From the IMG/VR virus record IMGVR_UViG_3300031420_000399: DNA of 64,000 nt. One strand, written 5' to 3'. The notes under the pieces were generated by a model, which worked only from the letters and a program-made list of their open reading frames with translations, had not been told where the DNA came from and made no database searches. Numbering within the stretch: position 1 is the stretch's first letter; every line of letters starts with the position of its first letter. Shown here piece after piece: positions 508-56,577 of this stretch. Source of the stretch: a virus (lineage: Duplodnaviria; Heunggongvirae; Uroviricota; Caudoviricetes). Made by a program: the position numbers and the translations under genes.

Positions 508-1032
508 TCATCGAAAGCGCAGAGAGTGGACCCGAATCAGCCACTCAGGCTCGATGGTCCAGATGCAGGCCTGGACAAACTCCTTGTGCTCAACTGAGAG
601 AACCTTCTTCCAGCTTTCCCGGGTCTCTACCTCGGAGAACTCCCGGTCCCAGTTGGAGATCCATTCCTCCTCGCCCATGATCGGTACGCCGTTGAGGATC
701 GCGTGCCAGTCATCGAAATCTGAGAGTAGGACGAGCTCATCGGGGACCTCGAGCTCGAGGATCACATCGCTTTTAGCGTAGTGGCTGAAGAGCATCCGAC
801 GGCGGTCTGGCTTCTGAATCTCGCCGTGGTTGCGAGCCCATGCCCAAACTGGAAGCCTCACGCCGGCAGGCCGGGTAATCCTCTCGTCCATCTCCACCAT
901 GAGCCAGTCGTAGGCCCTTTGGAATTCCTCACAGAGTCCGTAGTGGGCAGAGAGCTCAGGGTCACAGATAAAGCGCAGGCCTGAGCAAAGCTCGTCAGCT
1001 ACTTCTTTCGGCTGGAAGGACCAGAGTTTCAT
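508..1032 (-). CDS. DUF3841 family protein
   Basis: Motifs LWSFQP, AYDWL..EM, PVWAW, KPDRR, LELEVPDELVLLSDFDDWHAILN. Confidence 0.8.
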   Translation of the reverse strand: MKLWSFQPKEVADELCSGLRFICDPELSAHYGLCEEFQRAYDWLMVEMDERITRPAGVRLPVWAWARNHGEIQKPDRRRMLFSHYAKSDVILELEVPDELVLLSDFDDWHAILNGVPIMGEEEWISNWDREFSEVETRESWKKVLSVEHKEFVQACIWTIEPEWLIRVHSLRFR

Positions 1033-11476: not shown

Positions 11477-11597
11477 TCCTCTAAACCTCAGCAAAGCCGT
11501 AGCCTCATTCCCCTCGTGGGTCTGGGGCTACAGCTCTTTCGGGGCGCTTCAGGAATCGCGGTTGTACTCTTCAGACAGGCCGTGTACAGTTTCATCC

Positions 11598-12188
11598 ATG
11601 ACCACCACGCGCCAGACCTTCGGCCCCCTCGTCCATCGATCGCTCCAGGCCTCTGCTCGCTCCGCCCGAGAGATGGCGCGGATCTTCAGCTCCGAAGATG
11701 GCGACATCAGCCCCGAGTACCAGCGTGACTCGGTCTGGACCGAGGACCAGCGCATCGCCCTGGTTCGCTCCTGGCTCATGGGTGTACCGATCCCGGCAGT
11801 GGTGGTCAACGACCGGATCTTCGGCTCCTGGCCCAGGGATCGGACCGGACCTCTCGGCGGCTTCGCCTACGCAGTCATCGACGGCAAGCAGCGCATCGAG
11901 ACGGCCATTGCCTGGTTCGCTGGGGAGTTCGGTGTCCCCGCGTCTTGGCTCCCGGCAGATGTGGTTGAGACCACGGAGGACACCGAGGACGGCCCCTATG
12001 TTCACTACACTGGCCTCGAGGCCAGTGAGCAGCGCCACCAGGCTATGATGTTCCAGCTCCCCACGGTGGAAGCTCAGGTCGCCACGATCCAGGAAGAGGC
12101 CGAACTCTTCTTGCTCCTCAACGGTGCTGGCACCCCGCAGACCGAGGCCAATCTCTCCCAGGCTCAGGCCGTGGCCGAGGGCAACTGA
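11598..12188 (+). CDS. DUF262 (ParB-like; GmrSD/SspE N-terminal type) domain protein
   Basis: PEYQRDSVW..LVRSWLMGVPIP..VIDGKQRIET; leaderless promoter TTGTAC..TACAGT. Confidence 0.85.
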   Translation: MTTTRQTFGPLVHRSLQASARSAREMARIFSSEDGDISPEYQRDSVWTEDQRIALVRSWLMGVPIPAVVVNDRIFGSWPRDRTGPLGGFAYAVIDGKQRIETAIAWFAGEFGVPASWLPADVVETTEDTEDGPYVHYTGLEASEQRHQAMMFQLPTVEAQVATIQEEAELFLLLNGAGTPQTEANLSQAQAVAEGN

Positions 12189-16889: not shown

Positions 16890-17858
16890 TTGAAGGAGCC
16901 ACCCGTGGCAGAAGACAGCATCGAACTCGAGCGCGTCCGCGTCCGCTACGACCGCCGGGATGGAGCCTTCAGGCTCACTTCCTCTGACTCCAGGCTCAAG
17001 GGTAGGTCATTCCGGCTCACTCTCTCCAAGGGTAGTGACGCAGTAGACAGCCTCATGGATGTCTTCGAGGAAGAAGGCATCCTCAGCGCCGAGGATCGCA
17101 TTCCTACCGTGGTCCAGCTCCGAGAGCTCGCCGGGCTCAGCCAGGAAGTTGACGAGTACAGTCTCACGGGTCAGGAGCGACCCTTCCAGGACAGTCGACT
17201 TGTCTTTTCGGTGGGCCAGCACATGGGTGGAGCTGCCATGAGCGTGGACCTCAGCTACTCACCTCACACGCTCATCACCGGCAAGCCTGGTACCGGAAAA
17301 ACTCAGACGCTCCGCATCTTTCTCAAGCGAGCCCGGGAACTTGCGCTGGCCAACAAGGCGAGCCTTCTCATCTTGAACTCATCCCAGAGCGATGGGAGCA
17401 AGTATGCCACGCTCGCAAAGCTCACCGGCATCCTGAAGGCTCGCATTGAGATACTGCAGCAGACAGGTGCCCGGGACTCGAGGGACTATGAGGCTCGAGT
17501 GGGGACCATGGCGCCTCTCTTCGTCTTTGTGGATGGACTGGATCGGGTGAAGCGCAGCGACTGGCTGCCCGAGCTTCTGAGCTTCGGCGAGACGGTGGGC
17601 ATCTACCTCTTCGCCACTGTGAACTCAGTCATGGACATTCCCCGCTTCGCCGACGACTATACGCTCCTCAACATCGGCAGACGCATCGAGATGGGACTTC
17701 CATCTGTTGGATCTCCTGGTAGCACTCTCAGCAAGCGCCTCTTCGACAGCCTCGGCCGGGGCACCATCGGCACCAATGGCTTCCCCGCAGAGCTTGTTCA
17801 ATTCGCCGATCTGAGCGGGGATAAGGATGGCAGAGCCCTCGAAAGGATGCTCCCATGA
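16890..17858 (+). CDS. FtsK/HerA-like P-loop ATPase domain protein
   Basis: PHTLITGKPGTGKT Walker A; LFVFVDG degenerate Walker B; start may be GTG 16905-16907. Confidence 0.65.
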   Translation: MKEPPVAEDSIELERVRVRYDRRDGAFRLTSSDSRLKGRSFRLTLSKGSDAVDSLMDVFEEEGILSAEDRIPTVVQLRELAGLSQEVDEYSLTGQERPFQDSRLVFSVGQHMGGAAMSVDLSYSPHTLITGKPGTGKTQTLRIFLKRARELALANKASLLILNSSQSDGSKYATLAKLTGILKARIEILQQTGARDSRDYEARVGTMAPLFVFVDGLDRVKRSDWLPELLSFGETVGIYLFATVNSVMDIPRFADDYTLLNIGRRIEMGLPSVGSPGSTLSKRLFDSLGRGTIGTNGFPAELVQFADLSGDKDGRALERMLP

Positions 17859-18538
17859 GTGCGACTCATAGCCTGCCTCGCTCCAAGGATGATGAGCCCT
17901 TCGACTGGTCTGTCTTTCTCTGGAGCAAGCACAACAGGGCAGGTACTCGAGGCGTGGTCTTCGCACCCCATCCTCAGCTCGTGCTCCTCGACCGAGAGGG
18001 TATCAGCTTCGTAGCTAGTTCAGGACTCCTCATCGTCTTGACGCTGATGGCGATGTCCATTGCCTTTCTCTCACCCTTCCGTGATCTACTGGTGGACGGT
18101 GGGCTGATCTCCTACTCAGAGTCTCCTCTCGACGGAGGGTCTGGTTGGCTCCTAGGCTGGAGCTTTGGGCTGGCTGTGCTGCTATCGGGACTCATCCACG
18201 AGAGTGGTCACTGGATAGCCTACAAGCTCACAGGTCGCAGGCTCGTGGTGTTCACCCTTGCTGCTCGCATGTCGGTCACAGCGGATCGTGGGCCATCCAA
18301 CAGCTACCAGAGGCTCCTGATTTCAGCTGCTGGCGGGACTCTAGAAGCCCTCGTCGGAGGCTGTCTTCTCCTAACTCAGGGAGGCTTCGGCTGGAACGGG
18401 TTACAGCTCATCGCTGCGGCTTTGATCTTCAACGGGCTAGCCAATGTGTTCCTTCCGACTCGAAGCGAATCAGATGGCTGGCGAGTCTGGAGCTCGCTCT
18501 TCGCCATCCTCATCGGTCGAGGCGGCAGAAGCCTGTAG
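17855..18538 (+). CDS. M50/site-2-protease-like membrane metallopeptidase
   Basis: LIHESGH, ISAAGG, N..P....SDG within TM segments; ATGA overlap with the ATPase gene. Confidence 0.75.
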   Translation: MSATHSLPRSKDDEPFDWSVFLWSKHNRAGTRGVVFAPHPQLVLLDREGISFVASSGLLIVLTLMAMSIAFLSPFRDLLVDGGLISYSESPLDGGSGWLLGWSFGLAVLLSGLIHESGHWIAYKLTGRRLVVFTLAARMSVTADRGPSNSYQRLLISAAGGTLEALVGGCLLLTQGGFGWNGLQLIAAALIFNGLANVFLPTRSESDGWRVWSSLFAILIGRGGRSL

Positions 18539-31627: not shown

Positions 31628-32338
31628 TTGGCCATCGTCTACCGAGTGGAAACCCCCGAGGGATTCGGTCCCTACTCGAAGATCGCTCCCGAGCTCACCT
31701 CCCACGAGAATCACCGCAGTCCCAGGGCTGAGGGTATCGAGTTCCCCTACTACTGGTACTTCGGATTCCGGGATCTCAGCCTGCTCACGCTCTGGTTCTC
31801 AGCTGTCGAGCTCGAGGAGCTCAAGGAGTACGGCCAGAGCTGGCTCCTGAGCAAGTACGAGGTCCCAGATGACCAGCTCCTGAGCACAGCATACCAGACA
31901 GTCTTCGACCGCCGCAGCTCTCAGTCGAAGCTCCTCGGCTGTCTACCCTTGGACATGCTTGCTGGATCGCCTCGCGGGAGGCTCTCGAAGGAGCGAATCG
32001 CTGAGCTCGAGGAGAGCTTTCAGCCCCATGAGTACTGCGAGCCACGACCTCGCTTCGGCCTGTTCGAGAAGACCAAAACGCTCGGGCTCGACGAGGGGAA
32101 GTATACGCTTCAGGAGATCATCGAGAGCCTGGAGGAAGGGCGCTACTACAGCGCCGTACTGAAGTCGGAGGCCCGAGAGGATCCTGAGGGCTATCCCATC
32201 AGGTTCTTCCTCTTCAGGGGTGGATCGCTCTACCCACTGAGAGGAGCCAAGTTCCAGCCTTACTCAGCTGAGTTTCAGCCCCTCTCGGTGGAGATAGCTC
32301 TAGCCGACAAGCTCGACCTGAGCACCTTCGGAGCTTAG
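31628..32338 (+). CDS. phage-type hypothetical protein
   Basis: VYRVE..GFGPY..FGF..L..WF motif seen in phage proteins; TTG start with SD. Confidence 0.75.
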   Translation: MAIVYRVETPEGFGPYSKIAPELTSHENHRSPRAEGIEFPYYWYFGFRDLSLLTLWFSAVELEELKEYGQSWLLSKYEVPDDQLLSTAYQTVFDRRSSQSKLLGCLPLDMLAGSPRGRLSKERIAELEESFQPHEYCEPRPRFGLFEKTKTLGLDEGKYTLQEIIESLEEGRYYSAVLKSEAREDPEGYPIRFFLFRGGSLYPLRGAKFQPYSAEFQPLSVEIALADKLDLSTFGA

Positions 32339-33084
32339 CCCTCGTCAGCCTCGGCGCTATCTGCAGCGCTGTCGTCAGCTACAGCAGGTGTCTGTGGCTC
32401 GAAGCGCAGCTTGAGCGCATCGTAGATCATCCTCAGGTCCGCCTCGTCCTCATAGTAGGAACTAGGGTCAAGGACGAACTTGATAGGATTCGGCACTGTC
32501 GGGAGGCCATTGTCATCGAAGATATAGCGGTCCCGATAGGAGCGGTTGATTTCATAGGGCTGCATCACCAGATTGTCGTCGGTGAGGGGCTTTCTTGGGT
32601 CCTTGTGGCCGCGCTCGAACTTACCCTTACTCATGGACTCGAAGAGTCTTCGCGAGCGGCTCACACTCGCATCTCTTCCAGCATCTGTGGTCAGATCCTG
32701 TGCGGAGTGAAGGTACTTGTCGCTGAAGGTGAGCGCTGCAAAGCCGTAAGCAGGGCTCTTCTCGGGGGTCTTGTCGAGCTTGATGCCCACTCGCTCAATC
32801 TTGTTGGCCCACTGGATGGAATCGCCACTAGTACGGCCGAGCTTCTCTCCGATTGCCGTCAGGTGAGAGCGGTCGAAGGCTAGACCGACATTGGCAGCGA
32901 AGAGCGCGATGATCTGATGGCTGATGTTCCGATCGCTTGGCTTCGAGGGGAGCTTCACGGTCGGATTCTTAGCGATGAACTTCTGCAGACCCTGTGGCCA
33001 AGATGTGGCCTTGGTGAAACCTGCGAGAACAGCGGCGAACTGCGCGTCTGTTACCTTCTGAAGAATGCGATTGTTTTGTACCAT
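32335..33084 (-). CDS. orphan HNH/His-Me-finger-like endonuclease (restriction-enzyme-like)
   Basis: ERGHKDP..DDNLVMQP..NRSYRDRYIFD; AGAAGGA SD before ATG 33084; opposite strand, AT-rich upstream; no MTase in the window. Confidence 0.6.
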   Translation of the reverse strand: MVQNNRILQKVTDAQFAAVLAGFTKATSWPQGLQKFIAKNPTVKLPSKPSDRNISHQIIALFAANVGLAFDRSHLTAIGEKLGRTSGDSIQWANKIERVGIKLDKTPEKSPAYGFAALTFSDKYLHSAQDLTTDAGRDASVSRSRRLFESMSKGKFERGHKDPRKPLTDDNLVMQPYEINRSYRDRYIFDDNGLPTVPNPIKFVLDPSSYYEDEADLRMIYDALKLRFEPQTPAVADDSAADSAEADEG

Positions 33085-33420
33085 GATGTTATTTCCTTCT
33101 GCCATTCAAGGCGTTCGTTAAGGATGATTTCCTTACATTGAATATCGGCATAAGTACGGTCAAAACTGCATTTCCAGACAAATAGTTTGTGAGTTACATG
33201 TGAAACTGCGCTTTGCGGCTATTTCATCCTAGAGCAGCGTAGCTGTCGTACCGAAGGCATCCGGTGAAGCGCTATGGGGCCATCCCAAAGACAGCAGGAG
33301 CCTGCCTGAGGCGGCTACCCCATCAGCACATGCGACGAATCGCGCTCAGTGTTCTCGGGGCTTAGAATGGAGACCTAAGAGACCGTTGCGCAGGCAGAGC
33401 GCAGGGTATAGGATCGAACC

Positions 33421-55923: not shown

Positions 55924-56577
55924 ATGGCAGCGTCACAGCACCGGAAGCTCGGCGAGCTCCTCCCCGTCCCCTCGGGGAACTTCATCGTCCTCGACTTCGA
56001 GGCTACCTGCTCCAACCCGGGCAACTCCATCCAGGTTCCCCGAGGCGAGATGGAGATCATCGAGATCGGCGCCCTGGCCGTCTCACCGGAGCTCGAGGTC
56101 CTCGGCGAGTTCCCGCGCTTCGTCCGCCCCGTGCGGAACCCCGTTCTTTCGGAGTTCGCCACCGAGCTCACCACCATCACCCAGGCCGAGGTCGACGGCG
56201 CAGAGGACTTCCCCACCGTGGCAGCAGAGCTCGCACTCTGGGCAGCTGAGCACGAGATCTCCTGGTGGGGATCCTGGGGTAAGTACGACCGCAACCAGCT
56301 CACCCAGGATGTGCGCTTCCACCGGGTTCCGGACCCGCTTCCCCAGGAGCACTTCAACATCAAGGAAGCCTTCAGCGCCCGGCAGAACATCAAGCGCCGG
56401 CTCGGGCTCGGAGGAGCGGTGAAGATGGCCGGACTCGACTTCGCTGGCACCGCCCACCGGGCCATCGATGACACCCGGAACATCGCTCGAATCCTGCCCT
56501 TCGTCCTCGGAGAGGCTGCCGTGAAGAACCCCGCGGGCTTCTCGAAGGACTCCATCGAAGAGGGCCGTGTAGCCTGA
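55924..56577 (+). CDS. DEDDh 3'-5' exonuclease, ERI-1/KapD-like
   Basis: VLDFEATC, EIIEIGA, FVRPV.NP.LSEF..ELT.ITQ, WGKYD, HRAIDD. Confidence 0.9.
   Translation: MAASQHRKLGELLPVPSGNFIVLDFEATCSNPGNSIQVPRGEMEIIEIGALAVSPELEVLGEFPRFVRPVRNPVLSEFATELTTITQAEVDGAEDFPTVAAELALWAAEHEISWWGSWGKYDRNQLTQDVRFHRVPDPLPQEHFNIKEAFSARQNIKRRLGLGGAVKMAGLDFAGTAHRAIDDTRNIARILPFVLGEAAVKNPAGFSKDSIEEGRVA

Follow-up and report, generated by a model that had tools for sequence, protein, structure and literature searches.

On one strand of the phage DNA analysed here, a stretch of 64,000 nucleotides hereafter called the window, lies a gene for a homologue of Type II restriction endonucleases that has no DNA methyltransferase beside it, in DNA without a single copy of the tetranucleotide ACGT. 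On balance we lean, by no great measure, towards reading its product as an orphan Type IIP-like restriction endonuclease, captured without its methylase and self-protected by the absence of ACGT, its probable target. The gene and the region ahead of it are:

Positions 32335 to 33084, minus strand: orphan Type II restriction endonuclease homologue, 249 aa, with its ATG at 33084.
Positions 33085 to 33230, minus strand: putative AT-rich 5' control region, recognised by GC content, conserved motifs and the Shine-Dalgarno sequence GAAGGA.

An earlier note on this DNA had placed the gene at 32335 to 33250, with a core of the form GHKDP..DNLV.QP. The minus-strand open reading frame, which includes FERGHKDPRKPLTDDNLVMQPYEINRSYRDRYIFDDNG, was confirmed at 32335 to 33105 and does encode the motif, as GHKDP...DNLVMQP..INRSYRDRYIFD, but the end given at 33250 takes in the promoter region, which is not coding. 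Extension to the upstream ATG at 33105 yields a protein of 256 aa (P0001); that codon is replaced by ATA or AAA in distant orthologues and is not a conserved start. The ATG at 33084 is preceded by the Shine-Dalgarno GAAGGA, is the start common to all orthologues in an upstream alignment of eight, and coincides with the beginning of the 249-aa database protein P0002, and we regard it as probably the true start. Close homologues of the nuclease number 22, and the family profile retrieves 193 representatives at 50% clustering.

The strand and the upstream sequence set the gene apart, much as the earlier note had remarked. Minus-strand genes are a minority in the window, 70 of 80 confident open reading frames (at least 100 aa, GC3 at least 0.70) lying on the plus strand, and the 5' region is indeed AT-rich, with 39.7% GC at 33085–33230 against 59.7% for the whole window; no 150-nt stretch of the window is richer in AT than 33056–33205. 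Two motifs upstream of the nuclease, GCCGATAT (33142–33149) and TGAATGGCAGA (33098–33108), are invariant or nearly so in eight orthologous upstream regions, and within the window each occurs only in 33085–33230. Being both conserved and unique, they argue that the nuclease gene has a private, conserved control region, and comparison of the orthologues suggests that the motif-bearing AT-rich stretch may be its dedicated promoter or operator. A sigma-70 scan upstream of the gene returned no consensus promoter. A conserved 5'-leader hairpin was considered and dropped, a hairpin or palindrome between the motifs being present in some orthologues and absent in others.

Structure prediction divides the protein into two domains (residue numbers follow the 256-aa P0001):

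Positions 32725 to 33006, minus strand: predicted N-terminal winged-helix DNA-binding domain, residues ~34–127.
Positions 32392 to 32700, minus strand: C-terminal nuclease and dimerisation domain of the AF2 domain model, residues 136–238.
Positions 32536 to 32619, minus strand: modelled beta-beta-alpha-Me core, residues 163–190, with H167, N178 and N187.

A family-wide motif, D95-x-I97-Q98-x-x-N101-K102, is located on helix 96–106 of the winged-helix domain. Folded alone by AF2 from a 51-sequence alignment, the C-terminal domain reached a pLDDT of 96.8, and in the AF2 models its beta-beta-alpha unit comprises β163–167, β179–183 and α184–190 (β28–32, β44–48 and α49–55 in the numbering of the domain model, corresponding to residues 163–190 of P0001). 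H167 stands at the end of strand 1, N178 before strand 2 and N187 on the helix, which is the His-Me/HNH layout of a histidine ending β1, an asparagine at β2 and an asparagine on the helix. G166-H167 is invariant among 51 diverse family members; N178 and N187 are invariant in 17–19 closer homologues and retained at ~84% and ~67% in the 51-member alignment, and across the phage clade and its closer relatives, seven R-M-linked sequences included, H167, N178 and N187 do not vary.

Searches by sequence returned little. Neither the protein nor its family profile had a significant match in Pfam, PHROGs or the PDB sequences, DNA and protein searches of a phage collection with the nuclease gene gave no match, and no relatives appeared in scans of IMG/VR with the family alignment and two neighbouring proteins or in two scans of the GTDB species genomes. 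Distant homologues reached by the family profile bear a CxxC...GHxDP...N...QCxxCN pattern; 6 of 42 match Pfam HNH (PF01844), and several match Septu PtuB models. The zinc-binding cysteines of these distant HNH relatives are absent here and already missing in the R-M-linked members. By fold, AFDB clusters named 'HNH endonuclease' align at an rmsd of 1.3 Å over 44 residues with 34% identity, an HNH-named AFDB match also scores TM 0.49 over 73 residues, and a protein atlas supplied HNH-cluster leads for the nuclease, all below 0.9. A fold search had been suggested as a check on the His-Me-finger-like core seen earlier, and it answered in part: the AFDB HNH clusters align, whereas the PDB matches (PacI, Cas9 HNH, I-PpoI, Gme HNH and Cap5) cover the ~30-residue core only and are individually insignificant. 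With the modelled beta-beta-alpha fold, the invariant H167 and the AFDB matches all bearing out that core, we conclude from the models that the protein belongs to the His-Me/HNH nucleases, in a family that Pfam does not describe.

The protein is also predicted to pair with itself. Homodimer prediction gave an ipSAE of 0.60 against 0.00 for the best control. Among proteins of solved structure, 21 of the 30 that are pairs of one chain attained this mark and none of the 23 that are single chains did. At least 85% of contacts agree between the runs, the partner has a pLDDT of at least 57, and the predicted interface falls within residues 137–235, that is, in the nuclease domain. Such a homodimer fits a palindromic site, and the prediction describes a Type IIP-like arrangement.

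The nature of the family emerges from its non-phage members. Contigs were examined for six non-phage homologues with 32–51% identity to the phage nuclease (P0021, 51%; P0022, 42%; P0024, 39%; P0025, 35%; P0023, 34%; P0028, 32%), and beside all six lies a tail-to-tail PF01555 methyltransferase (323–341 aa, N6/N4), the two genes touching or overlapping in several of the R-M loci. Since all six relatives are paired with a methylase, the family is one of Type II restriction endonucleases, and what had been called restriction-enzyme-like has become a real homologue of such enzymes. Judged from gene order and sequence, the conserved pairing of nuclease and methylase is what characterises a Type II R-M system that has kept a single specificity. 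Five of the partner methylases, when aligned, are 59–65% identical to the first sequence and far more conserved than the nucleases. They carry the motifs TDPPYF and DPFNGSGTT (DPPY type), their nearest solved relatives are adenine methyltransferases such as M1.HpyAVI/DpnA and CcrM, and the source names of methylase homologues read 'site-specific DNA-methyltransferase (adenine-specific)', with no recognition site given.

The R-M-bearing contigs have 36–45% GC. In five of them the observed-to-expected ratio (O/E) of ACGT is 0.87 (L005), 0.27, 0.23, 0.23 and 0.55, so that the word is scarcely depleted in L005 and depleted in the other four after correction for ACG, CGT and CG content; when these contigs are pooled, GGCC alone is more depleted than ACGT. 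Two of the surrounding contigs have features of their own. In L019 (1–11783), the neighbours of P0025 include another PF01555 methylase, an Eco57I-like gene, NucS, a dCMP deaminase and radical-SAM genes, in what looks like a defence island. L017, a 7.2-kb contig with an R-M-linked homologue, has 0 copies of CATG against 22.2 expected and 0 of GGCC against 5.6; small, low in GC and strongly avoiding several sites, it is possibly itself a mobile element.

The phage copies differ from these relatives in lacking the partner. In a maximum-likelihood tree, 16 phage-type nucleases form one clade (support 91/99) whose sister is the R-M-linked P0021 (100/97), and under midpoint rooting the phage clade and P0021 are nested among R-M-linked members, a topology suggesting that the phage orphans stem from a single capture. 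In the phage contigs the nuclease gene converges on a Phage_T4_Y00F-like gene, with a DUF3228 gene beyond it, and never on a methylase; in all relatives the nuclease holds the same syntenic position between the Y00F/DUF3228 genes and a gene of 166–181 aa. The number of tandem copies of the Y00F-like gene ranges from one to three among the relatives (7939–9936 in L001, 31628–32338 in the window).

That the nuclease is an orphan, with no DNA methyltransferase in the 64 kb, had been asserted from the sequence at the outset, and every search agrees. Pfam DNA methyltransferase families (E ≤ 1e-3) had no member among the 150 open reading frames of at least 110 aa on both strands of the window, a [DNS]PP[YFW] motif together with an FxGxG motif was not found there, and tblastn with partner-type methylases had no match in the window or in the gene-bearing loci of 15 relatives. 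These searches covered 64 kb of a 193-kb genome and 2–21 kb per relative, or ~90 kb of flanks; in the DNA available, linkage to a cognate methyltransferase is absent for this gene and for every phage-clade copy. The orphan nuclease has been maintained under purifying selection, with dN/dS of 0.11–0.20 in unsaturated pairs, and its fixed position together with this selection argues against a sporadic homing element. Both a sporadic homing element and a terminase-associated HNH gene were rejected on fixed synteny, a single clade, purifying selection and the lack of terminase or intron context.

The contig recorded for the gene's cluster is 193 kb long, relatives lie on contigs of 178, 346 and 673 kb, and the DNA of the element is present in phyllosphere and plant metagenomes; none of the sequencing runs listed as containing it is an RNA run. 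Genes of the window match RNase H, Hoc-like and tail-tubular PHROGs, an FtsK-like ATPase and R2K ATP-grasp, and many are ORFans. Elsewhere in the window lie a DUF3841 protein (511–1032, minus strand, E 2e-23), a second nuclease-type gene (11562–12185, plus strand, 208 aa, GmrSD_N/DUF262, ParB-like nuclease, E 6.7e-15), a weakly Peptidase_M50B-like protein (17855–18535, plus strand) and an RNase_T/DnaQ-like exonuclease (55924–56574, plus strand, E 3e-19). The relatives on the longest contigs (L003 and L016, 673 kb; L023, 573 kb; L022, 542 kb; L007, 346 kb) have mostly small ORFan genes, and if the contigs of 350–670 kb are phage genomes they would be among the largest known.

The absence of ACGT extends over the whole window, as measured against an expectation from a maximal-order Markov model:

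Positions 1 to 64000, no strand: ACGT-free sequence context, 0 copies observed against 92.9 expected.

Among the window's palindromes CTAG ranks second in depletion, with an O/E of 0.51. The coding sequence reveals how the gap is kept: NAC and NAT codons stand at 0:50 ahead of GTN and at 1358:420 elsewhere in the window, threonine ACG is followed by T in 0 of 181 cases, and arginine CGT follows A in 0 of 66. The avoidance of ACGT is thus made and kept by synonymous codon choice. Two further palindromes are underrepresented more mildly, CTAG at about half of expectation (117 against 230 in the window, 0.45–0.59 in relatives) and CGCG at ~0.6 of expectation in the window and the gene-bearing relatives.

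The same word is missing wherever the gene is found. ACGT has a count of 0 in all 15 relatives' loci with the gene (3–37 expected in each), even though nuclease identity among these ACGT-free loci goes down to 53%, and in 155 kb pooled from nine gene-bearing contigs it is the only missing 4–7-mer with an expectation of at least 8; the other zero-count 6-mers there are AT-rich, with expectations of 7.5 or less. The overlapping words CCATAA and CATAAC (0 against 7.5 and 6.2 expected in the pooled 155 kb) are borderline given the number of words tested. Co-variation of the gene with ACGT depletion, proposed earlier as a check, was found, in that four related phage-like loci, in whose 20 kb the nuclease was not found, have ACGT at an O/E of 0.59–1.05. 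These loci are related through the DUF3228 neighbour (54–79% identity), and the co-occurrence is phylogenetically confounded, since they have 44–55% GC and probably other hosts, and since the gene-bearing loci share ancestry and probably hosts. In L001 and L012, relatives of the 178-kb contig, AATT is also missing (0 against 7.1 and 9.0 expected). AATT is kept by the other gene-bearing relatives, making its loss in L001 and L012 look like a second, lineage-specific avoidance, presumably host-driven; with AATT lost in one lineage only, other avoidances vary between lineages, whereas that of ACGT does not.

DNA can carry an active Type II enzyme without protection only if it lacks that enzyme's site, and the orphan state of the nuclease therefore points to the missing word. 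ACGT is the leading candidate because it is the sole common missing word, because the predicted dimer is of the palindrome-reading type and because the genomes of the relatives tend to avoid it; it also contains an adenine that a DPPY methylase could modify. We put ACGT as the recognition site at about an even chance or slightly better. The link drawn in the earlier note between the nuclease and the ACGT gap is strengthened by the co-occurrence, the sole missing word, the predicted dimer and four of the five R-M contigs, but it is still one that we infer, as are the nuclease activity, the ACGT specificity and the biological target.

We propose that the gene product would be an active homodimeric Type IIP-like enzyme, recognising DNA through its winged helix and cutting by HNH/His-Me catalysis, and that an ancestor of a clade of very large phages captured the nuclease once from an R-M system, leaving the methylase behind. 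The phage would need no methylase since its genome holds no copy of the enzyme's target, most probably ACGT. Since the nuclease, taken up without its methylase, would have killed a carrier that still had the site, the likeliest history is one of purge, capture and lock-in: ACGT would have been purged under host restriction, making capture of the bare nuclease survivable, and after capture the nuclease would lock the genome into a strictly ACGT-free state. The enzyme could then cut unmethylated ACGT-containing DNA in the infected cell, be it the host chromosome, plasmids or co-infecting phages. More tentatively, and with slightly less than even confidence, we suggest that a whole clade of giant phages with genomes of ~180–670 kb uses a methylase-less ACGT cutter and tells self from non-self by an absent 4-bp word, that the enzyme makes the word-free state irreversible (a genome-wide addiction), and that the protein represents a new wHTH-HNH family with an m6A partner in cells.

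The avoidance of ACGT could instead be due only to ACGT restriction by the host, with the phage nuclease reading another site, for example a long AT-rich one. Total loss of a 4-bp site can come from host restriction alone, and host-driven site loss does operate in this group, AATT falling to 0 against 7–9 expected in one lineage only and CTAG standing at ~0.5 of expectation everywhere. Numerous AT-rich 6-mers, of which few copies would be expected, have counts of zero, and AT-rich sites of at least 6 bp that are missing too (expectation below 1–8) are possible targets, with PacI, an orphan HNH enzyme that reads 8 bp of AT-rich sequence (PMC3488263), as the precedent. Against this, the R-M relatives reside in DNA of 36–45% GC and four of five of their contigs are nonetheless depleted in ACGT after correction, the loss of ACGT is absolute across phages whose nucleases have diverged to 53% identity while other avoidances vary, and GC-rich hosts would offer few targets to a rare cutter of AT-rich sites. 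We consider host restriction alone an unlikely explanation, if far from a negligible one.

We give little credence to the notion that the phage carries a separated R-M system or otherwise protected DNA, with a methylase or base modification encoded elsewhere on the 193-kb genome. The window is only a third of the replicon and separated R-M systems exist (PMC3488263), yet neither the 64 kb nor ~90 kb of the relatives' flanks yielded a methylase, the ancestral tight linkage of endonuclease and methyltransferase is gone in every phage copy, and protection of ACGT by modification would leave no reason for a codon-level purge. It is similarly improbable that the phage protein has lost cleavage or is no restriction enzyme at all, acting rather as a wHTH regulator, as a nuclease that nicks DNA or is specific for structures, or as a homing endonuclease. 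The protein does lack the zinc-binding cysteines that distant HNH relatives possess, and its gene, which has a control region of its own and opposes the prevailing gene direction, resembles some mobile nuclease genes; the cysteines, however, were already gone in the R-M-linked members, the three putative catalytic residues are invariant from the phage clade through those members, and the gene keeps a single syntenic position beside the DUF3228 and Y00F-like genes under purifying selection.

If an orphan ACGT-cutting enzyme is indeed what these phages carry, then a virus would wield a frequent 4-bp cutter offensively and owe its immunity to the way its genome, several hundred kilobases long, is composed. 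There would be a selective reason other than host escape for the absolute avoidance of a word, and a new mode of phage-host or phage-phage conflict. The work would also add an uncharacterised wHTH-HNH family of restriction enzymes, which may already be in REBASE, and perhaps with it a reagent of practical interest, a new ACGT cutter whose partner methylase is of the m6A type.

As a rule a restriction enzyme is tolerated only when accompanied by a methylase, and to our knowledge the single textbook exception is PacI, which has a rare 8-bp site and comes from a bacterium. PacI of Pseudomonas alcaligenes is an orphan HNH enzyme without a cognate methylase, and the safety of the genome that carries it is explained by the lack of the site (PMC3488263). 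The phage nuclease resembles PacI as a small His-Me/HNH enzyme, homodimeric by prediction, with no cognate methylase; a sequence relationship between the two is not detectable, and the PacI core (3ldy) matches only weakly (rmsd 1.2 Å over 33 residues, E 6.7). PacI is encoded on a bacterial chromosome and its 8-bp AT-rich site is rare by composition, whereas here the carrier is a phage and the candidate 4-bp word, expected ~1.5 times per kb, has been purged codon by codon. Unlike PacI, the phage enzyme has an additional winged-helix domain and no zinc-binding cysteines. Solitary restriction endonuclease genes have already been catalogued in prokaryotic genomes, and our literature search found no paper on a phage-borne orphan restriction endonuclease.

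Should the site be ACGT, the enzyme would share its candidate recognition sequence with the R-M systems of the MaeII/HpyCH4IV type. The characterised ACGT system MaeII has an m5C methylase (PMC10113651), whereas the partner here is a beta-class DPPY methylase whose nearest solved relatives are adenine-specific. Since the kind of partner methylase differs, the present family would then be an independent solution to reading ACGT, and for the same reason the assignment draws no backing from a characterised system. A classification of restriction endonuclease folds does not mention ACGT enzymes, and the supplements searched from a prokaryotic epigenome survey list no ACGT motif. Close counterparts are the R-M systems of the relatives (P0021–P0028), which share with the phage nuclease both the two-domain architecture and the invariant residues of the catalytic site and the recognition helix; where examined, their copies always lie tail-to-tail with a methylase, and the phage copies never do.

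Virus-encoded restriction and host-DNA-degrading nucleases are known from chloroviruses, whose R-M systems include CviAII, and from T4, with EndoII and EndoIV, and these viruses protect their own DNA by methylation or cytosine replacement. Like those nucleases, the enzyme described here could be turned on foreign DNA and leave the viral genome unharmed, in this case through the absence of the site.
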